From sequence record PP430345: 64,000 bases of DNA. One strand, written 5' to 3'. Below, piece after piece: positions 2,865 through 43,706 of the stretch (position 1 is the first letter of the stretch; the number at the start of each line of letters is the position of its first letter). Under the pieces are notes generated by a model. That model was not told the DNA's origin. It did not search any database and saw only the letters and a program-made list of their open reading frames with translations. The position numbers were made by a program, and so were the translations under genes. The DNA is from Escherichia phage vB_EcoM-LTH01.

Positions 2865-3386
2865 TTAATTTGGCTTTATAACTTTACGAACAACATCCAA
2901 AATCTCACTTTGATGCGTATATTCAGTATTGATTTTTGTGGGCCAGTCCAGATACCAAGGTTCTTCTAACTCCCTCAGGGGTTGAAGCGCAAAAGGAACC
3001 CCATGAAGGATGTGATCACGGTCAGGGGCAAACGTCTCCGTATAATCCCAAGCCCATCTCGCCTGCCCTTTAGTTATTGAATCGGCCCGGCGTTGCTTCA
3101 AGATCATCTTCTTAATGAAAACAGGATCTTCATCCTTATCTTCAATAAATTTAGGCGCTCGACCCATACATCCGATAAGGTAGTCATTATCTACACGTTG
3201 GATGAAGGACTCTACACTACCTCCCATTGCATTCCATTGGCCTACCCAAGACTTGCCACTTGAGGTGACTATAAGCTTACCTCTGCCATTCTCGTAGTTC
3301 TCAATGATAACCTCGATAGGGTCGAGCCTTTCTTCCTGGAGTTCTTCTATTCGAACCTTTTTAACTAAGCTTTCTGTGACTTTCAT
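2865..3386 (-). CDS. hypothetical protein (173 aa)
   Basis: ORF in operon context. Confidence 0.6.
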   Translation of the reverse strand: MKVTESLVKKVRIEELQEERLDPIEVIIENYENGRGKLIVTSSGKSWVGQWNAMGGSVESFIQRVDNDYLIGCMGRAPKFIEDKDEDPVFIKKMILKQRRADSITKGQARWAWDYTETFAPDRDHILHGVPFALQPLRELEEPWYLDWPTKINTEYTHQSEILDVVRKVIKPN

Positions 3387-10464: not shown

Positions 10465-10721
10465 TGTTAGATCTTATTGTTGGTGTTTTTAGTGCTGACG
10501 TACAGTTTTCAGTGTTTGTTGTGGTTCTTACTGGATTAGGATTGATCGGTTTTGCATTTGTAAGAACTCTTTATAAATATTTCAAAATCGCCTCTGATTT
10601 TTACAAAGGTAAACGTACAAAGCTGAAGGCTTATCACTTTATCTCAGGGTTTGTTGATCTATACTTTCTGATCATTGTTCCTCAGGTAATTTATCACGTT
10701 GTTTCTTTAATTTTTAGTTGA
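10464..10721 (+). CDS. small membrane protein (85 aa)
   Basis: Two hydrophobic helices. Confidence 0.5.
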   Translation: MLDLIVGVFSADVQFSVFVVVLTGLGLIGFAFVRTLYKYFKIASDFYKGKRTKLKAYHFISGFVDLYFLIIVPQVIYHVVSLIFS

Positions 10722-10746
10722 CACCATATCAAGGGTCATGTAATAT
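10718..10746 (+). promoter_or_regulatory. sigma70-like promoter TTGACA-N17-TAATAT, followed by the CCTATCAAAACAAA element
   Basis: Hexamers read directly upstream of the 10777 gene. Confidence 0.5.
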
Positions 10747-10776
10747 GGCCCTATCAAAACAAACAAGGGGAAATAA

Positions 10777-14772: not shown

Positions 14773-14966
14773 TGTTCGTAAAAGCAAATTTGTCAGGTGA
14801 GGGTGGTCTTAAAGTTGCTCTGCGTGTAGAAGAGATTCTTCTCTTTCGTGAAGGTAATCATTTTGGTGAAGAAACTACCGTTGTTGTCTTCCGTGATGGA
14901 AGTACAGCACATATCACCCAGGATGTTGAAACTTTTGAACAACTGATCAAGGAAAGTGTAAAATGA
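14772..14966 (+). CDS. hypothetical protein (64 aa)
   Basis: ORF with GGAGG ribosome-binding site. Confidence 0.55.
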   Translation: MFVKANLSGEGGLKVALRVEEILLFREGNHFGEETTVVVFRDGSTAHITQDVETFEQLIKESVK

Positions 14967-15349
14967 CAGCGCACGATAAACTGGCAGCTAAGTATGGCCT
15001 AAAATTCGGTGGTAACTTTGCACTGGAAGGGGTTAGTACGATTTCAGAAGACCTCGAAAAGAAATGCGGGTTTGCAATTGATGGAACTCAAAATCTGGTA
15101 AATCTGATAGGTTATATTGAACACTCCGAACTGGAATACCAAAAGACAGGGTTTGCGGGTCGTCGTGTAACAACCTCTCTTGTACGGGGTCTTGCTGTAC
15201 GTGATGGAAGTATCTATGCGATCACAGATGACTACGTATACCGCCTGTATGGCCCCTGGTTGGGCGAAGTCATCACAAGCAACCCTTTCCTTAATGGTTT
15301 GTGGAAAGGTATTGCTGATCAAATTCAGAAGCATATCGAAGGTAGTTGA
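14963..15349 (+). CDS. hypothetical protein (128 aa)
   Basis: ORF. Confidence 0.6.
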   Translation: MTAHDKLAAKYGLKFGGNFALEGVSTISEDLEKKCGFAIDGTQNLVNLIGYIEHSELEYQKTGFAGRRVTTSLVRGLAVRDGSIYAITDDYVYRLYGPWLGEVITSNPFLNGLWKGIADQIQKHIEGS

Positions 15350-15374
15350 CAAGAGGGTGACCCAGTGATAAGCT
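15346..15374 (+). promoter_or_regulatory. promoter-like TTGACA-N17-TAAGCT overlapping an inverted repeat GACCCAG-N7-CTGGGTC
   Basis: Read in the sequence upstream of the hydrolase gene. Confidence 0.35.
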
Positions 15375-15395
15375 GGGTCCTCAATTGGAGGTAAA

Positions 15396-15911
15396 ATGAA
15401 AAAATTAGTTTTATGTGGTTTGATTTGTACTCTGTCTCTGGCACCAGGCGTCACTTATGCCAAAGAGAGAGCACAGAAGGTTATTCATAAATGTACGAAA
15501 AAGGATAATTCTGTAAATGCCTTAGCCTGTAATGTCTATATGGAGTCCCGAGGCGAGACGATAAATGGTCAAATGGCTGTTGCCTTCGTTACAATGAATC
15601 GGATGAAAAATGATAAATTCCCGAGAACAATGAAAGGAGTTGTGTATCAAGCCTCTCAGTTTTCATGGACATTAACTAAATCCTCTTATAGCATAACAGA
15701 TAAAGACTCCTGGGAGGGCGCTCTAAGCATCTCCAAGTTTGTACACAAGATAAAAAATAATGAGGTTTTGTATAAAAGGTTTGACCCAACACATGGATCT
15801 CTGTACTATCATACTAAGAAGGTTAAACCTGTTTGGCGTAAACTTCTAAAAAGAACAGTCACCATAGAAAATCACATTTTTTACAAAGACAAAGAGGAGA
15901 AAAAGAAATGA
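15396..15911 (+). CDS. secreted cell-wall hydrolase, SleB/CwlJ-like (Hydrolase_2 family); candidate endolysin
   Basis: N-terminal signal peptide (MKKLVLCGLICTLSLAPGVTYA); NVYMESRGE...GQMAVAFVTMNR matches the SleB-type hydrolase motif. Confidence 0.6.
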   Translation: MKKLVLCGLICTLSLAPGVTYAKERAQKVIHKCTKKDNSVNALACNVYMESRGETINGQMAVAFVTMNRMKNDKFPRTMKGVVYQASQFSWTLTKSSYSITDKDSWEGALSISKFVHKIKNNEVLYKRFDPTHGSLYYHTKKVKPVWRKLLKRTVTIENHIFYKDKEEKKK

Positions 15912-16120
15912 TAAAACGCATGATACTGACATTTGCTGTAGTTATGACATTTTGGCTAGTAGGTGTCAGATATGTAAAGAATGCTTACTTTGATCATGTA
16001 GCCGACGAGGTTTTCATCCAGATCAGTGTGACTTCCATTGTAATGTATATGGCAATGATCTTATCCCTTGTAGCAGCGGAGATGTTATATGAAAAACGTA
16101 AAAATAAAACTACTAGATGA
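15908..16120 (+). CDS. small two-helix membrane protein (70 aa); holin-like candidate
   Basis: Two hydrophobic helices and a charged C-terminus, immediately after the hydrolase gene. Confidence 0.45.
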   Translation: MIKRMILTFAVVMTFWLVGVRYVKNAYFDHVADEVFIQISVTSIVMYMAMILSLVAAEMLYEKRKNKTTR

Positions 16121-16286
16121 TTTCAGTGATCGCGATGACCATCCAAAGAAAGGTGATATTCTTATAATTGAAGAAATTCACTATGATGATGATTTTTACC
16201 TTGAGAGTGTTATAGCCGTAGCACTAAAAGACAACAAAGGATATCTACTCTACCCATATGAATATGAGGAACTAAATAATGACTAA
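16089..16286 (+). CDS. hypothetical protein (65 aa)
   Basis: ORF. Confidence 0.45.
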   Translation: MKNVKIKLLDDFSDRDDHPKKGDILIIEEIHYDDDFYLESVIAVALKDNKGYLLYPYEYEELNND

Positions 16287-17637
16287 GACAGTGATCGGTA
16301 ACGAAGCAGCGATGCAGGCAATCATGAATGGTGAAAACGTTTTTATCACCGGACCTGGTGGTAGTGGTAAAAGTATGATGATCGCTGCATTGCGTGACTT
16401 CTTTGCCGATAGTTTTCTGTTTGTTGGTCCTACAGGTGTAGCATCATTAAACATCCGTGGTGTTACTGCCCACAAAGCATTTGGTTTGACATTTGGGGTT
16501 ACAACATCTGAAGATTACAAAGCCAAATCCAAAAAGGCATCTATGCTTATGGCATCTGACGCATTAGACGGTATTGTATTTGATGAGATCGGCATGACTC
16601 GAAGTGACAAGCTGAAAGAGATCGATATGAAACTTCGTCACCATCGTAAGTCTGACAAACCTTTTGGTGGCCTACAGGTCATCATGTTTGGTGATGGTTT
16701 CCAGATCAAGCCTGTACTTAAGAAAGAAGAAGTCCCTCTGTTTCGTGAACTACACGGCAAGGAAATCCCTTTTGGATGTGAAACTTGGGAATCTTTGAAT
16801 TTGACCTATGCCTACCTTCCTAAAGTGCATCGTCAAAGTGACCCTGTGTTTGCAGAACACCTGAATAATATCCGTATCGGGAAAAACATCCCTGATGCCG
16901 TTAACTTCTTTAACCAGCGTTGCTTTGGTCGTCCACTTGACGGGGCAGTAACTTTAACTACCACAAACAAGCTGGCAGAAGAGATTAACAACAAAGAGTA
17001 CGCAAAGATTAATGCTGAACAGCATGAATTTAATGCCCGTATTACTGGTGAGTTTGTTGAACGTCCAGTTAATGAAAAACTCTTTCTCAAGGAAGGTCTT
17101 AAAGTAATGATTGTTGTTAACGACAATGATCAGAAGAAGAAAGTGCCTGATTATGTCAACGGTACAGTCGGCATTGTTCGTCGTATCGCAAAAACCTTTG
17201 TTGTTGTAGATATTGATGGCAAGATGGTCCCAATCGGCCCTGCAACATGGAACAACGTCGCTCAAGTACCTGAGAAAAAGATGATGCTTGAAGAGGAAGA
17301 GGTTGATATGCCTGACGGGACTAAAAAGATGATCAAGAAGATGGTTGAAAAGACTGTTCTTGTTGATAAATCTATTGGTGAATACATTCAATACCCATTC
17401 AAGTTGGGCTATGCGATCACTGGTCACAAGGCACAAGGTTTAACTTTAGGTAAGGTAAACATCGATCTCGGCTTTGGTACTTTCACACCTGGTCAAGCAT
17501 ATGTTATGCTTTCCCGTGCCACGAGTGTAGAAGGTCTTCGCCTTTTGAAACGCTTACGAGTAAAAGATATCATTGTTGACCAAGATGTTGTAAACTTCTA
17601 TCACGAGAAGTTCCCCAGTATCTTCAAGGATCAATAA
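16279..17637 (+). CDS. SF1B DNA helicase (Dda/PIF1/RecD-like)
   Basis: Walker A ITGPGGSGKS, Walker B IVFDEIG, C-terminal ITGHKAQGLT motif. Confidence 0.75.
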   Translation: MTKTVIGNEAAMQAIMNGENVFITGPGGSGKSMMIAALRDFFADSFLFVGPTGVASLNIRGVTAHKAFGLTFGVTTSEDYKAKSKKASMLMASDALDGIVFDEIGMTRSDKLKEIDMKLRHHRKSDKPFGGLQVIMFGDGFQIKPVLKKEEVPLFRELHGKEIPFGCETWESLNLTYAYLPKVHRQSDPVFAEHLNNIRIGKNIPDAVNFFNQRCFGRPLDGAVTLTTTNKLAEEINNKEYAKINAEQHEFNARITGEFVERPVNEKLFLKEGLKVMIVVNDNDQKKKVPDYVNGTVGIVRRIAKTFVVVDIDGKMVPIGPATWNNVAQVPEKKMMLEEEEVDMPDGTKKMIKKMVEKTVLVDKSIGEYIQYPFKLGYAITGHKAQGLTLGKVNIDLGFGTFTPGQAYVMLSRATSVEGLRLLKRLRVKDIIVDQDVVNFYHEKFPSIFKDQ

Positions 17638-19193: not shown

Positions 19194-21238
19194 TGAGCAC
19201 TATTGGCGAAAGTCTGTTTGGCGGTTATAAGTTTGGACATAAAAATCCTAAAGCTTCAGTAGCACGTAATTATGGTGGTGGTGTGTCTCGTGTGGAAGAA
19301 ACAGTTGAAGACGTATTGACTTATCCGTGTAAAAGTATCCCTGAGCGTGGTATCGACGAAAAGACAGCTAAACGATTTGGTATTCGTACCAAGTTGTCAG
19401 CTAAAGACGGTATGACACCAGAGGCGCATTATTTTCCGTACACATTGGAAGGTAAGGTTGTAGGTTTTAAGAAGCGTGATCTTACGATCCCTAAGCAACA
19501 GAAAGGTCACTTTACAACTATTGGTTTCCAATCTGTGGCTTGTGATATGTTTGGGCTGGAAGGTGCAAATAAGTCTTCCAAACGTATGATCTTTATCACT
19601 GAAGGTGAATACGATGCTGCAATCTTGTGGCAGGTATTGACAGAGAAGTACAAACCGAAGGATGGTTCCACCCGTAAACCAAACTTCACAGTTGTATCTA
19701 TCTCTAACGGTACATCAAATGCCGTGCAAAACTTATCACAGAAGAATAACTATAAGCTTCTGAGTAAGTTTGAAGAGATTATCGTAGCTTTCGATGCTGA
19801 CCGTGCGACAGAAGCAGAGAAGGCCAAAGGGATCATGAAAGGTAAAGATGCAGTTGCAGCGGTATACTCTGTAATTCCACAAATGAAGGTCGTGGATATT
19901 CCAGAAGATATGGACCCTTGCGATATGTATAACAAAGGTCTTTCTGATCAGTTGTTTTGGGCTGCAATGAAGCCAAAAGAATATGTGCCTGATGGTTTCT
20001 CGACTTATTCACAGTTCCGCGAAAAGGCACATGAGATCCCTAAACTCGGCAAGAAGTTCCCTTGGCCCACCATGACCAAGCTTACTTTAGGCCGTCGCCC
20101 AGGTGAAGGTTACTTTATCGGGGCAGGGGTCAAAATGGGCAAGAGTGAACTTCTTAACCAGATGGTAGAGCACATCACAGGTATTGAGAAGTCAAAGGCT
20201 GCGGTGTTTAAGTTCGAAGAAGAGAACGAAATTACCTGTAAAAAGATCGCAGGTAAGCGTTATCATAAAGACTTTGTTAACGCAGAAAAGGTAATGATTC
20301 CTCAAGAAGATGGAACTTTCCGTGACATTTGGGGTAATGAAGTATTTGAAGGGCAACGTGGCTACTTTAAGCAAGAAGAACTGATCAAAGCTACAGATGA
20401 GGTTGGTGATAGTGTCATCTATTATAACAACTATGGTCGTGCAGTATGGGATGAACTGAAAGGTGCTATCCGTCACGCAGTGATTGTAGAAGGTTGTGAA
20501 GATATCTTTATTGACCCGATCACTCGTCTTGTGCAAGGTATGAGTGCTTCCGAAGCTAACCAGGAGCTGGAACGATTCTCGGATGAGATCTCTAAACTGG
20601 CAAAAGAGCTTGGCTTTACTTATTATTGCTTCTGTCACCTTAACAAGCCTGAATCTGGTAAGCCTCATGAATTTGGTGGTCAAGTCCAGTCGGCACAGTT
20701 TGCTGGTAGCCGTGCAATGATGCGTAACACTTATTACATGTGGGGTATTGAACGTAACAAAGATCCAGAACTCCCGATGAAACAACGTAACACTTCTTAC
20801 TTTGTTATTCTAGATGACCGTAAACACGGTCGTGCTGGTAAATTCCCTGTATTCTATGACATTGATACAGGTGATTATCTGGAACCGCCAGAGGGCTTCT
20901 TAGAGAGTCCTTATGAAACTCTTCGTGAGTGGTATGCCGCTCATCCAGAAGATGATCATCGTTCTCCAGACTTCAAGCCTAAGGCAGCAGAGATTCAACC
21001 CCTATCTGAACAAAACAGTGATCTCACTCGTTCAGATATTAAAGAGGAAGATATTCCTGAGCCGGATGATAACTTCCTGCGTGAGCAAGAGGAAGAGATC
21101 AAGAAGGTTATGGAAGAAATGGAACAACCCTCAGAAGAACCTACATGGGAGCAACAAAGTATCGTTGAATCCGCAGGTGATATTCCTGATGTGCCGGACA
21201 CAGAGCCGGATGATTGGGACGACAACGCACCTTTCTGA
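19193..21238 (+). CDS. bifunctional DNA primase/helicase (T7 gp4-like: Toprim primase plus DnaB-family helicase)
   Basis: Toprim-like IFITEGEYDAAILW; helicase Walker A GAGVKMGKSEL; 681 aa. Confidence 0.75.
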   Translation: MSTIGESLFGGYKFGHKNPKASVARNYGGGVSRVEETVEDVLTYPCKSIPERGIDEKTAKRFGIRTKLSAKDGMTPEAHYFPYTLEGKVVGFKKRDLTIPKQQKGHFTTIGFQSVACDMFGLEGANKSSKRMIFITEGEYDAAILWQVLTEKYKPKDGSTRKPNFTVVSISNGTSNAVQNLSQKNNYKLLSKFEEIIVAFDADRATEAEKAKGIMKGKDAVAAVYSVIPQMKVVDIPEDMDPCDMYNKGLSDQLFWAAMKPKEYVPDGFSTYSQFREKAHEIPKLGKKFPWPTMTKLTLGRRPGEGYFIGAGVKMGKSELLNQMVEHITGIEKSKAAVFKFEEENEITCKKIAGKRYHKDFVNAEKVMIPQEDGTFRDIWGNEVFEGQRGYFKQEELIKATDEVGDSVIYYNNYGRAVWDELKGAIRHAVIVEGCEDIFIDPITRLVQGMSASEANQELERFSDEISKLAKELGFTYYCFCHLNKPESGKPHEFGGQVQSAQFAGSRAMMRNTYYMWGIERNKDPELPMKQRNTSYFVILDDRKHGRAGKFPVFYDIDTGDYLEPPEGFLESPYETLREWYAAHPEDDHRSPDFKPKAAEIQPLSEQNSDLTRSDIKEEDIPEPDDNFLREQEEEIKKVMEEMEQPSEEPTWEQQSIVESAGDIPDVPDTEPDDWDDNAPF

Positions 21239-31519: not shown

Positions 31520-31530
31520 TATACAAGCGG

Positions 31531-31566
31531 ATAGGACTATGTTATAGTAGTCCTATCAAAACAAAT
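31531..31566 (+). promoter_or_regulatory. perfect 10-bp inverted repeat GATAGGACTA-N8-TAGTCCTATC followed by CCTATCAAAACAAA; operator or stem-loop upstream of the 31579 gene
   Basis: Palindrome read in the sequence; the same CCTATCAAAACAAA 14-mer follows the promoter at 10741-10765. Confidence 0.45.
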
Positions 31567-36340: not shown

Positions 36341-36394
36341 CAGAAAGTTAAGTGTGGGGCATAATGGCCCCACTTAAACAACAGAGGAAAGAAG

Positions 36395-42602: not shown

Positions 42603-42863
42603 TTACTTGTTTTCGTCGGAAGGGTCTTTATCTTTTTTCAAAGATAATCCCCAACGGAGGTTGATGAGGTCACTCAACAGGTGTGGGGCCACTACCGTAG
42701 GGGCATAAAGCCATACGTACCATTCAGGCAATGTATTGTTGAATCCATACCAGAGAAAGACGGCAGTCATAGCAGCCATACCTACGTTAGACCAAAACTT
42801 CGTATGAGAAGCTTTATCTGGTTCCACCGCAGAGGTCACTAGGTCTTTGAGAAATTTTAACAT
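42603..42863 (-). CDS. small membrane protein (86 aa)
   Basis: Two hydrophobic helices. Confidence 0.5.
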   Translation of the reverse strand: MLKFLKDLVTSAVEPDKASHTKFWSNVGMAAMTAVFLWYGFNNTLPEWYVWLYAPTVVAPHLLSDLINLRWGLSLKKDKDPSDENK

Positions 42864-42885
42864 AGATCACCTTCATTATCAATGT

Positions 42886-43344
42886 TCATACCATGTGGGC
42901 AATGAGCACTAGAAATATCACTACTGCTGTTCTTATCCATTCCGGTACGGTATTATCCTTCCAAGAATAAACGAACACAAAGGTTTCTATGAAATATTTG
43001 TGAGCGTCTCTAAGAGCGAATTCGTAAACCCATAAGGGGAACAATTCTGGATATTGGATTGCAAACACTTGAATAAGCATGAACGGAATACTTAGGCATA
43101 CGATAAGTTTTTGTCGTAATCCTTTCACTGTACAACCCATAGTGAAAAGCAGTATCGAATCCAATGTCCAGACGACATTAAAATAAAGAGTGATATCGAA
43201 ATTGATTTGCGTAGAGAAGAACCAAAGGATCAGGTTCTCCAATACGAGATAGGCCAGGCAAAGCCCAGCCATTATCTTTGTTCCACTCTCTTTTCGAGTA
43301 GCAAGGATTACGAAACAAATGCCATATATTATGGCTGTAATCAT
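42886..43344 (-). CDS. polytopic membrane protein (152 aa)
   Basis: About four hydrophobic helices. Confidence 0.55.
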   Translation of the reverse strand: MITAIIYGICFVILATRKESGTKIMAGLCLAYLVLENLILWFFSTQINFDITLYFNVVWTLDSILLFTMGCTVKGLRQKLIVCLSIPFMLIQVFAIQYPELFPLWVYEFALRDAHKYFIETFVFVYSWKDNTVPEWIRTAVVIFLVLIAHMV

Positions 43345-43706
43345 TTGCGGTTCTCAATAATTTTGTTTAGTAATTCTCGAATATCCTTCTGTAGAGCGTG
43401 GTTTTCTTCTTTTGCTTCCTTTCGCATATCTGTGATATCGGTCCTAATATCTTGGATCGTATCGGTGATATGTTTTATCTTACGGTCAAGAATGGCATCG
43501 ATACTATCCTTAGTAACCGCAGATTCCTTCAAGCGAAGAACATCTTTTTCAAGCTCACTTTGACGTGACTCTAATTTTTTAAAGTCGGTGTAAAAGATCT
43601 TTAATGCACCCAGCAAAATGAATGTTAAAAGACCCCAAAGTGCTTTCAGAACTGCCATTATATCAACAATCATAAGTCTCCATAGTCGGGCCGAAGCCCG
43701 ACTCAT
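43341..43706 (-). CDS. membrane-anchored coiled-coil protein (121 aa)
   Basis: N-terminal helix (IVDIMAVLKALWGLLTFILLGALKIF) then heptad-like charged region. Confidence 0.55.
   Translation of the reverse strand: MSRASARLWRLMIVDIMAVLKALWGLLTFILLGALKIFYTDFKKLESRQSELEKDVLRLKESAVTKDSIDAILDRKIKHITDTIQDIRTDITDMRKEAKEENHALQKDIRELLNKIIENRK

Follow-up and report, generated by a model that had tools for sequence, protein, structure and literature searches.

The locus raises the question whether a secreted cell-wall hydrolase and a small membrane protein, encoded side by side in an early gene block, form the lysis cassette of their phage. It lies in a stretch of 64,000 nucleotides from Escherichia phage vB_EcoM-LTH01 (PP430345), here called the window. 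An earlier note on this DNA had proposed such a cassette, consisting of an exported amidase with a holin- or pinholin-type partner at an unusual location. The secreted SleB-type hydrolase, the coupled protein with two transmembrane (TM) segments, the early block and the non-virion nature are retained from that proposal; the amidase, the lysis cassette, the pinholin and the unusual location are given up. The interpretation preferred here, with about even confidence, sees the pair as an accessory to lysis, a Sec-exported muralytic enzyme coupled to a membrane partner whose role is unproven, and not as the main lysis cassette.

Gene organization

The phage of the window is of the Septuagintavirus type (Vequintavirinae) and 95% identical to phage UPEC06. 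At the locus, the nucleotide identity to the Septuagintavirus phages UPEC06, A5-4, A7_1, A73 and W70 ranges from 89 to 95%. The hydrolase gene (15,396-15,911, plus strand) encodes a predicted secreted protein of 171 amino acids of the SleB/CwlJ type (Hydrolase_2). It is followed by a gene for a 70-aa membrane protein (15,908-16,120, plus strand) with two predicted TM segments in N-in/C-in topology, a candidate holin or regulator. Both open reading frames were found exactly where the earlier note had placed them, with the motifs NVYMESRGE and GQMAVAFVTMNR. Its description of a signal-peptide SleB-family hydrolase followed by a two-helix membrane protein agrees with the Pfam match, the signal features and the hydropathy reported below.

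Two Shine-Dalgarno (SD) sequences were read from the sequence. GGAGG (15,387-15,391, plus strand) lies 4 nt 5' of the hydrolase ATG, and GAGGAG (15,894-15,899, plus strand) is located within the hydrolase coding sequence, 8 nt 5' of the ATG of the 70-aa gene. In an ATGA, the start of the 70-aa gene overlaps the hydrolase stop codon. Judged from this overlap and the internal SD, the 70-aa gene is translationally coupled to the hydrolase gene. Purifying selection acts on both frames in a comparison of six genomes (dS up to 0.93): the dN/dS of the hydrolase gene is 0-0.03, that of the 70-aa gene 0.07-0.35. Both are therefore real genes. A scan of 14,800-16,500 with Rfam and for repeats revealed no meaningful structured RNA or repeats.

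The hydrolase

The HMM search for Hydrolase_2 suggested by the earlier note was positive. The Pfam profile PF07486 matches residues 53-163 (15,552-15,884, plus strand) with an E-value of 2.3e-23 and 83.1 bits (cut-off 27) over profile positions 1-100, its full length. PHROG 938 ('endolysin') matches at 5.6e-27, and phmmer finds the SleB structures 4F55 and 4FET. The AlphaFold2 model has a pLDDT of 86.8, with residues 1-23 disordered and the full fold at about residues 30-165 at a pLDDT above 90. A Foldseek search with this model yielded 4F55 and 4FET at a probability of 1.00 (TM score 0.73-0.74, 28-29% identity); further matches were noise. The protein is 100% identical to QUL77346 of UPEC06, annotated as 'putative cell wall hydrolase SleB'.

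The candidate catalytic residue is Glu50 (codon 15,543-15,545, plus strand) in the motif Y-M-E-S-R-G-E. It is aligned with the Glu of YGESRGE in SleB (4F55/4FET) and does not vary among 11 diverse homologues from phages or among 31 from databases. In SleB, the Glu of the E-x-R-G-E motif serves as catalytic residue. Against the equivalog model TIGR02869 for SleB, the hydrolase scores 63.4 bits (cut-off 236.5), with an alignment to the C-terminal catalytic part only, and no PG_binding domain was found in it with Pfam. The protein is therefore a SleB relative and not a SleB orthologue. The earlier note assigned it to the amidases. The solved homologues are deposited as germination-specific lytic transglycosylase, and a lytic transglycosylase rather than an amidase is probably encoded. 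Cys33 and Cys45 are conserved among the homologues of the Vequintavirinae and phAPEC8. SleB-type homologues occur in 1269 phage records from several unrelated families, including Vequintavirinae, Stephanstirmvirinae, T5-like Demerecviridae, Pakpunavirus and others.

Residues 1-22 (15,396-15,461, plus strand) form a predicted Sec signal peptide for signal peptidase I with cleavage after T-Y-A. The sequence reads MKK / LVLCGLICTLSLA / PGVTYA, followed by KE, and comprises an n-region (MKK), an h-region of 13 residues, a P17-G18 break, Thr at -3 and Ala at -1. The call is drawn solely from these sequence features and the disordered N-terminus of the model. An equivalent AxA-type signal is present in every Vequintavirinae homologue examined as well as in T5-like SE7, phAPEC8 and A110a. 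A lipoprotein was rejected, as there is no lipobox. A SAR domain was rejected as well, given the h-region of about 13 residues, the Pro/Gly break and the T-Y-A cleavage site; the same holds for close homologues.

The earlier note had named a virion-associated lysin among the outcomes that would refute its proposal. Such an enzyme, acting at DNA injection, would be in line with the general observation that peptidoglycan hydrolases are common virion components; nothing specific to this locus points to it. A Sec signal peptide takes the protein out of the cytoplasm, where virions are assembled. The orthologues of the two proteins in W70, W70_56 and W70_57, are absent from the table of 28 virion proteins identified in W70 by mass spectrometry, and the SleB-domain protein gp447 of PA5oct was not detected in virions either. 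For CB7, the virion-associated role has been given to another, gp25-like protein (PMC7344957). A function in the virion is thus very improbable and effectively refuted.

The membrane protein

Hydropathy analysis of the 70-aa protein locates TM1 at about residues 5-21 (15,920-15,970) and TM2 at about residues 36-57 (16,013-16,078). The N-terminus carries K3 and R4, and the C-terminal tail EKRKNKTTR is positively charged as well. The positive-inside rule thus predicts an N-in/C-in topology. The periplasmic loop would comprise only some 14 residues. Within the genus, where overall identities range from 87 to 96%, no other part of the protein is conserved less.

The traits of a class II holin are present: the protein is small, has two TM segments in N-in/C-in orientation and a charged C-tail, and is conserved in the genus. 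These traits are not specific, as over 25 further small membrane proteins are predicted in UPEC06. An invariant M1-I-K-R-M5 was checked as a dual start, yet the sole SD serves Met1 at 8 nt, and the in-frame Met5 would be 20 nt off. The pinholin-type trigger of the earlier note is supported by neither partner. A SAR-like TM1 of pinholins would be rich in Gly, Ala, Ser and Thr. TM1 of the 70-aa protein (ILTFAVVMTFWLVGV) is strongly hydrophobic (mean hydropathy 2.37) and poor in small or polar residues, and the N-terminus of the hydrolase is not a SAR domain.

A holin-type partner in the broader sense, also named in that note, found no backing in family searches. The 70-aa protein did not match any holin family in Pfam, PHROGs or NCBIfam. 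With tblastn against phages at E-values up to 1, only the five Septuagintavirus genomes were recovered. Beyond the genus, neither a word-indexed search (5.8 billion proteins) nor a full profile search (1.84 billion representatives) gave anything but spurious TM matches. On the basis of these searches, the protein is a genus-restricted ORFan. The gene is annotated merely as 'hypothetical' in UPEC06 (QUL77345) and in Septuagintavirus.

Transcription signals

A sigma-70-like promoter candidate, GTTGACA-N17-TAAGCT (15,345-15,374, plus strand), overlaps the preceding gene at its stop codon. The pattern GTTGAC-N18-TANNNT occurs six times in the window, compared with 0.73 expected copies, and at least six copies were obtained in none of 100 shuffles. 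Four of these copies (4,431, minus strand; 10,717, 13,622 and 15,345, plus strand) have a gene start no more than about 100 nt from their end. Another is intergenic (2,824, minus strand), and the last is located inside a gene (28,528, plus strand). The candidate is identical in all six Septuagintavirus genomes and resembles the published consensus of early/middle promoters in Certrevirus. Its -10 hexamer TAAGCT matches three of six consensus positions and was not called in a consensus scan. Late promoter motifs of the T4 type and the PVP-SE1 type (TATAAATA, CTAAATA) were not enriched, and none was present upstream of the locus. On the timing of SleB homologues, the publications on PA5oct and PAK_P3/PAK_P4 offered no usable information, and no paper on T5.083 was found.

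The -10-like hexamer is situated in the loop of a hairpin with the core GACCCAG / CTGGGTC (15,355-15,382, plus strand), directly 5' of the ribosome-binding site. The RNA fold has a free energy of -19.8 kcal/mol (z -4.0), and none of 200 shuffles was as stable. The hairpin is conserved in the six close genomes and recurs at the equivalent spot 5' of the SleB homologues of CR8, L016, L017, rV5, P8734, pEa55, L018 and L019. The layout of promoter and hairpin is shared by CR8, L016 and L017. A T-rich tract follows the hairpin in CR8, L016, L017, rV5 and P8734. The hairpin may act as a terminator, an attenuator or an insulator.

Occurrence in related phages

The pair is located in an early/middle-type block, as the earlier note had recognized. 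This location is not unusual. Across the Vequintavirinae, the SleB gene is conserved in its position next to a helicase gene or rIIA, and an early position is also known from T5. In rV5 (where it is so annotated), pEa55 and apparently P8734, the SleB gene adjoins rIIA. In H12, the rV5-like neighbour is named 'membrane integrity protector'. All genera of the subfamily have a SleB homologue, and the 'canonical' endolysin has been swapped between genera (PMC7344957). Given this conservation versus the exchange of the canonical endolysin, SleB could be the more important of the two enzymes.

A small two-TM ORF directly 3' of the SleB gene was present in seven of nine Vequintavirinae-type lineages examined. 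These positional counterparts have 51-76 amino acids and usually overlap the SleB gene or start within about 15 nt; the SleB proteins of the seven lineages are 45-60% identical. The ORFs of CR8, L016, L017, L019, pEa55 and P8734 share no sequence similarity with the 70-aa protein. No membrane partner follows the SleB gene in rV5 and L018, nor in any of six non-Vequintavirinae lineages checked. It is also reportedly absent in CR9 (PMC7344957). The lineages with a SleB gene and without a partner indicate that the hydrolase does not need the membrane protein.

Lysis genes of the clade

UPEC06 encodes a separate M15 endolysin of 127 amino acids, which lacks a signal and TM segments, as well as Rz and Rz1 as a pair adjoining the large terminase gene. 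In tblastn searches, the M15 endolysin, its neighbour, Rz and Rz1 had no match within the window. The description of the clade lists both an M15C endopeptidase and SleB and does not discuss the 70-aa gene (PMC11370258). The cytoplasmic M15 endolysin and the Rz/Rz1 pair of UPEC06, encoded elsewhere, and the agreeing description of the clade speak against the designation of the locus as a lysis cassette in the earlier note. The 70-aa gene adjoins the SleB-type gene but is widely separated from the genes of the M15 endolysin and the spanins.

No TM protein is encoded next to the M15 endolysin of UPEC06, and the annotations of the clade do not include a holin. Three non-virion membrane proteins of 86, 121 and 152 amino acids are encoded at 42,603-43,706 in the late tail-fibre operon, two of the three with homologues in 373 and 219 phage records. 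Being more widely conserved, they are rival candidates for the holin. One database homologue of the 86-aa late membrane protein carries DUF2644. This lead was abandoned, as none of 20 family members matched in Pfam, and no mention of DUF2644 for this protein was found in the literature.

Comparison with known systems

The pair is already known. The hydrolase is annotated as SleB in UPEC06, and the same hypothesis has been published for the Certrevirus CB7. UPEC06 (QUL77346/QUL77345) and the Septuagintavirus phages have the same locus with no difference of substance. Annotated and previously discussed, the locus adds no new kind of system.

For Certrevirus, a signal-peptide SleB with an overlapping two-TM candidate class II holin was proposed (Buttimer et al., 2020; PMC7344957). 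A signal peptide was reported for CB7_83, as was toxicity on expression in E. coli, the latter with data not shown in the source (PMC7344957). CB7_83/CB7_82 and CR8 gp090/gp089 share the gene order of the window: upstream gene, hairpin, signal-peptide SleB, overlapping two-TM ORF, small ORF and PIF1/Dda-type helicase. The two-TM ORF of Certrevirus (62-65 aa) is N-in/C-in, like that of the window. CR8 has a SleB protein with 53-57% identity to the hydrolase, and its gene is preceded by the same promoter-plus-hairpin architecture. The CR8 membrane protein belongs to phrog_10205, whereas the 70-aa protein is in no PHROG and has no detectable similarity to the Certrevirus protein.

Bacillus SleB (4F55, 4FET) has the catalytic-domain fold and the Glu motif E-S-R-G-E in common with the hydrolase, which lacks the N-terminal peptidoglycan-binding domain. 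In Bacillus, sleB forms an operon with the gene of its membrane-anchored partner YpeB. The pairing of an enzyme gene with a membrane-protein gene is thus shared; the 70-aa protein does not resemble YpeB.

Lys44 of the Oenococcus phage fOg44 has a cleavable signal peptide and is exported before lysis; collapse of the membrane potential by the holin has been proposed to activate it. The hydrolase shares with it the muralytic type and a predicted cleavable signal peptide. It differs in its catalytic class and its Gram-negative host, and its clade also has a cytoplasmic endolysin. Phage 21 uses the SAR endolysin R21 and the pinholin S21, and the SAR helix remains uncleaved and is weakly hydrophobic. 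As in R21/S21, the enzyme of the window pair, predicted to be exported, adjoins a small N-in/C-in protein that has two TM segments, a charged C-tail and two closely placed Met at its start. A signal-peptidase site, a strongly hydrophobic TM1 and the enzyme gene in first position set it apart.

T5.083 and the T5-like 'SleB' are signal-peptide Hydrolase_2 proteins of 149 aa, 42% identical to the hydrolase. T5.083 lies in the early region of T5 among mapped early promoters, far from the holin and the M15 endolysin, which adjoin in T5-like phages. Unlike in the window, no small membrane-protein gene follows the T5-like 'SleB' genes.

Function of the pair

As an accessory system, the two genes would represent, for Septuagintavirus, a module that part of the Vequintavirinae has conserved. 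Transcription of the pair would accompany that of the early/middle replication block, starting at a weak sigma-70-type promoter of its own and/or reading through the hairpin. The hydrolase would be exported via Sec, released from its signal peptide and soluble in the periplasm, probably with a Cys33-Cys45 disulfide. Homology suggests that it may cut glycan strands as a lytic transglycosylase through Glu50. This activity would be an accessory wall degradation, with bulk lysis by the cytoplasmic M15 endolysin and the Rz/Rz1 spanins encoded elsewhere. The M15 endolysin would need a true holin. The 70-aa protein may either depolarise or permeabilise the membrane in a holin-like manner, unleashing the pre-exported enzyme, or restrain or position the enzyme until then.

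The accessory role is suggested by the M15 endolysin and Rz/Rz1 of UPEC06, the coexistence of M15C and SleB in the clade, the separation of the two in T5-like phages, the early position of T5.083 and the distribution of homologues over the 1269 phage records. Several points count against it. The -10 hexamer is weak, and the hairpin may instead terminate transcription. Bacillus SleB probably requires muramic delta-lactam, which E. coli, the host, is not known to contain.

A functional endolysin-holin cassette, in which the Sec-exported endolysin is inactive in the periplasm until a class II holin triggers it, was suggested in the earlier note and by Buttimer et al. for CB7. It is considered unlikely. 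The adjacent and coupled genes do encode a muralytic enzyme and an N-in/C-in two-TM protein with a charged C-tail, the small TM gene is positionally conserved, and a SleB homologue exists in every genus of the subfamily (PMC7344957). The M15 endolysin of UPEC06 without a TM neighbour and the lack of an annotated holin in the clade fit as well. The invariant M1-I-K-R-M5 resembles a dual-start motif; an SD at proper spacing serves Met1 alone. A cytoplasmic endolysin and spanins are encoded elsewhere, and the block has host-type promoters, not late ones. The proposed holin is an ORFan at the genus level without holin-family match, one among many small predicted membrane proteins (more than 25 others in UPEC06), and has no counterpart after the SleB genes of rV5, L018 and reportedly CR9. 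Conservation of the membrane proteins encoded in the late tail-fibre operon extends far more widely. The opposite extreme, an adjacency without functional meaning, would make the 70-aa protein a small membrane 'moron', for instance for superinfection exclusion or host takeover. The confinement of the ORFan to one genus, the many small TM ORFs in UPEC06, the many lineages with a SleB gene lacking such a neighbour and the label 'membrane protein', the only one given to the PHROG of the CR8 positional analogue, are consistent with this. A 51-76-aa two-TM ORF right after the SleB gene in seven lineages is hard to ascribe to chance, and the ATGA overlap with the internal SD speaks for a connection. 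An accidental neighbourhood is improbable as well.

Alternatively, the hydrolase may not be a lysis enzyme at all, but an early to mid-infection factor of periplasmic peptidoglycan remodelling that is restrained or positioned by the membrane protein in a YpeB-like manner. Possible effects include a loosened or reshaped sacculus, a block of division and changes of the envelope. This explanation is possible but doubtful. Sec export requires no holin, and the position in the replication or early module is conserved in unrelated phage families having their own endolysin. Host-type promoter candidates are located directly upstream here and in CR8, L016, L017, SE7 and phAPEC8, and rIIA is the neighbour in rV5, pEa55 and apparently P8734. 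A SleB homologue of the Gram-negative Zymomonas affects growth, morphology and cross-linking, and YpeB is reported to hold Bacillus SleB inactive. The 70-aa protein has no similarity to YpeB, and its short periplasmic loop is the part least conserved in the genus. The toxicity of CB7_83 on expression fits a lytic enzyme as well (PMC7344957). The SleB-type enzyme comes in addition to a canonical endolysin wherever lysis genes were checked or reported, i.e. in the clade of the window, Certrevirus, T5-like phages and PVP-SE1/BME3. Signal-peptide SleB-type enzymes might be widely shared early/middle factors of periplasmic peptidoglycan remodelling in virulent phages of Gram-negative bacteria, restrained or localised in part of the Vequintavirinae by a fast-evolving two-TM partner in analogy to the inactivation of Bacillus SleB by YpeB; this generalization is tentative and rather doubtful.

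Implications

Vequintavirinae, the rV5-like phages, are widely used in phage therapy and biocontrol, and no holin has been identified in them to date. Several papers note a second, SleB-type 'endolysin' in Vequintavirinae and T5-like phages without resolving its role. The role of the secreted enzyme and its membrane neighbour, holin or regulator, once known, would complete the lysis pathway of a large group of phages. A naturally exported enzyme that acts on Gram-negative walls might be a further gain.

Gene pair and published interpretation

The gene of a 171-aa SleB-type hydrolase (15396-15911, +) is followed by that of a 70-aa membrane protein (15908-16120, +). ORF list and sequence agree exactly with an earlier note, which described this real and conserved pair correctly. 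The genes are coupled by an ATGA overlap of the hydrolase stop and the second start codon. A GAGGAG Shine-Dalgarno sequence lies 8 nt upstream of this ATG, within the hydrolase gene. Across six genomes, purifying selection acts on the hydrolase gene (dN/dS 0-0.03) as well as on the 70-aa gene (0.07-0.35). Escherichia phages UPEC06, A5-4, A7_1, A73 and W70, for which the genus Septuagintavirus (Vequintavirinae) has been proposed, share 89-95% identity with this region (PMC11370258).

UPEC06 encodes a protein identical to the hydrolase, annotated as 'putative cell wall hydrolase SleB'. As enzymes that degrade the wall, the genus paper names this SleB-like protein and an M15C endopeptidase (PMC11370258). 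The Certrevirus homologue CB7_83 carries a signal peptide and was toxic in E. coli on expression, data not shown (Buttimer et al. 2020, PMC7344957). For Certrevirus, the same paper proposed the overlapping two-TM protein as a candidate class II holin. The interpretation as a lysis cassette repeats this published hypothesis; the pair is already annotated and interpreted in the same way in the literature, with putative function.

Family, fold and predicted export of the hydrolase

Family and fold of the hydrolase are established. The profile search proposed in the earlier note matched Pfam Hydrolase_2 (PF07486) with E 2.3e-23 and 83 bits (cut-off 27), and a further profile match assigns the protein to PHROG 938, 'endolysin'. 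A sequence search recovered 4F55 and 4FET, the two SleB catalytic domains of known structure. These were also the only significant structural neighbours (probability 1.00, TM 0.74) of an AlphaFold2 model built with 31 homologues (pLDDT 86.8, disorder confined to residues 1-23). Glu50 (Y-M-E-S-R-G-E), the candidate catalytic residue, aligns with the Glu of SleB YGESRGE and is invariant across all aligned homologues. The term 'amidase' has to be replaced, as the structure entries for SleB name a lytic transglycosylase. Judged by sequence, the protein is a relative and not an equivalog of spore SleB, because it scores 63 bits against 236.5 for TIGR02869 and a Pfam search found no peptidoglycan-binding domain.

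The N-terminus, MKK-LVLCGLICTLSLA-PGVTYA/KE, is organised into n, h and c regions like a substrate of signal peptidase I and contains no lipobox; by these sequence features it is the cleavable signal peptide proposed in the earlier note. An equivalent AxA-type signal occurs in all Vequintavirinae homologues examined and in those of T5-like SE7, phAPEC8 and A110a. The hydrolase would be exported by Sec, matured and periplasmic. Cys33 and Cys45 are conserved among the homologues from Vequintavirinae and phAPEC8 and probably pair as a disulfide in that compartment.

Upstream region and genome position

The 46-nt spacer before the hydrolase gene holds GTTGACA-N17-TAAGCT, which resembles the published sigma-70-like early/middle promoter of Certrevirus. 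The window contains six matches to GTTGAC-N18-TANNNT where 0.73 would be expected; five of the six are intergenic, and for four the distance from their end to a gene start is no more than about 100 nt. Since the -10 is weak, the candidate promoter is no more than plausible. Its -10 hexamer forms part of the loop of a hairpin that folds stably (-19.8 kcal/mol, z -4.0). The element is conserved in six close genomes and recurs ahead of SleB in the Certrevirus phage CR8 and two metagenomic Certrevirus-like contigs (L016, L017). Several other lineages have a terminator-like T-rich tract after a hairpin before SleB.

Sigma-70-like candidates (TTGACA, 17 nt, TAnnnT-type hexamer) with the -10 in a hairpin loop lie at 10717-10760, 15345-15382, 31520-31560 and 36343-36375 (+). 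Their stem sequences differ, the structure is kept, and fold z ranges from -2 to -5. The layout may represent a terminator/promoter overlap, an attenuator or an insulator. Near the window start, a short repeat, GAGAACTTGAG(G/A)GGTTTTTC..., is present several times in a minus-strand intergenic region (204-512, 309 nt).

The position in the replication block, considered unusual before, is the rule for the SleB gene in the subfamily, and the T5 homologue lies in the early region. Hydrolase homologues occur in 1269 phage records. T5.083 of phage T5 (AY543070; 42290-42739 in the record, 20291-20740 in our T5 stretch L023) is homologous to the hydrolase (Hydrolase_2/SleB; 42% identity, E 4e-35) and has a signal peptide. 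It lies in a region of mapped early promoters of T5, and the T5 lysis genes are about 20 kb away. It is annotated as 'conserved hypothetical protein' only, and no literature mention was found. In T5-like Salmonella phages, the SleB gene is distant from the M15 endolysin gene, which adjoins that of the holin.

The 70-aa membrane protein and its counterparts

The 70-aa protein has, as proposed, two hydrophobic helices (about residues 5-21 and 36-57). Positive charge at both the N-terminus and the C-tail predicts an N-in/C-in topology. The start M1-I-K-R-M5 is invariant, with a usable Shine-Dalgarno sequence at Met1 only. The resemblance to a class II holin is one of general shape and goes no further; in UPEC06, more than 25 further small proteins are likewise predicted to be membrane proteins. 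The pinholin variant fails because TM1 is strongly hydrophobic and the hydrolase signal is cleavable, not a SAR helix. No homologue outside the genus was detected in phage tblastn, 5.8-billion-protein or 1.84-billion-representative searches. The gene of a 65-aa acidic protein ahead of the helicase (16089-16286, +; phrog_14198, labelled 'exonuclease', E 1.4e-8) overlaps the end of the 70-aa gene by an unusually long 32 nt; a similar 62-aa protein occupies this position in L016.

Other Vequintavirinae-type lineages, with SleB proteins 45-60% identical to that of the window, carry a two-TM ORF of 51-76 aa directly after SleB. It encodes 62 aa in CR8, 71 aa in each of the two metagenomic Certrevirus-like contigs, 65 aa in lineage L019, 76 aa in Erwinia phage pEa_SNUABM_55 and an unannotated 51 aa in Klebsiella phage P8734. 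Those of Certrevirus share an FPE(L/M)MA loop motif; none has detectable similarity to the 70-aa protein. The ORF of P8734 (PQ133625, about 3030-3185) has two hydrophobic segments, MKKFLVIFVCITPLCVILSLSQPMYWEQICGAYAIGMATAAFRLNTNNCKK, within a 170-nt 'gap' between the SleB homologue and a 663-aa gene. This gene and a 660-aa gene after the pEa_SNUABM_55 ORF, both hypothetical, stand at the rIIA position of rV5, where the gene after SleB is annotated rIIA (record rV5_ev158). Septuagintavirus and Certrevirus, reportedly without rII genes, have a small ORF and a PIF1/Dda-type helicase at this position.

In rV5, no small membrane ORF is present and SleB overlaps rIIA directly. The partner is also absent in lineage L018 and reportedly in the Certrevirus phage CR9. 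Outside the Vequintavirinae, each of the six lineages inspected lacks it as well (T5-like SE7, Pakpunavirus C11, phAPEC8, A110a, Aeromonas PhAER-4, Stenotrophomonas IME-SM1). It follows that the hydrolase is not dependent on this partner.

Possible role in lysis

A true endolysin-holin cassette is an unlikely reading. The pairing of hydrolase and membrane protein stands; against the cassette, UPEC06 encodes a separate annotated endolysin, a 127-aa M15 peptidase without signal or TM segment, inside a nucleotide-metabolism block and without TM segments in its neighbours. Two UPEC06 genes located upstream of the large terminase look like spanin genes, one for Rz with its N-terminal TM and the other for Rz1 with its lipobox (LVGC). 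By tblastn, none of four UPEC06 genes (M15 endolysin, its neighbour, Rz, Rz1) is encoded in the window. Certrevirus phages likewise lack a classical lysis cassette, and their Rz/Rz1 genes adjoin the large terminase gene (Buttimer et al. 2020, PMC7344957). The 70-aa protein, moreover, has no holin-family match in Pfam, PHROGs or NCBIfam.

A cytoplasmic endolysin requires a genuine hole-forming holin, and with a cytoplasmic M15 endolysin in the clade, a holin must be encoded somewhere in the genome. Competing, subfamily-wide holin or antiholin candidates are three membrane proteins between tail-fibre genes of the late operon (42603-43706, -). They comprise 121 aa (43341-43706; N-terminal TM, coiled coil, weak Rz-like PHROG matches), 152 aa (42886-43344; four TM) and 86 aa (42603-42863; two TM, TM1 rich in small residues, charged C-tail). 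Homologues of the 86-aa protein occur in 373 phage records and of the 121-aa protein in 219, both including rV5 and Certrevirus; the former extend to phAPEC8-type phages. The virion proteome of W70 lacks the matching ORF interval, W70_108-111.

The orthologue of the hydrolase is also absent from W70 virions, which makes a virion lysin highly improbable. That the adjacency is functionally meaningless is unlikely, as the position of the two-TM ORF is kept across lineages despite sequence turnover, which argues against chance. It is rather doubtful that the enzyme is non-lytic and remodels peptidoglycan in the periplasm, with the 70-aa protein as a YpeB-like partner. An even chance is given to a Sec-exported, periplasmic accessory lytic transglycosylase with a membrane partner. 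Such an enzyme would act on the glycan strands, adding a wall-degrading activity beside M15 endolysin and spanins, and the 70-aa protein would serve either as depolarising, holin-like trigger or as restraint. It is a tentative and rather doubtful extension that signal-peptide SleB-type enzymes may be widespread among virulent Gram-negative phages as periplasmic factors other than endolysins.
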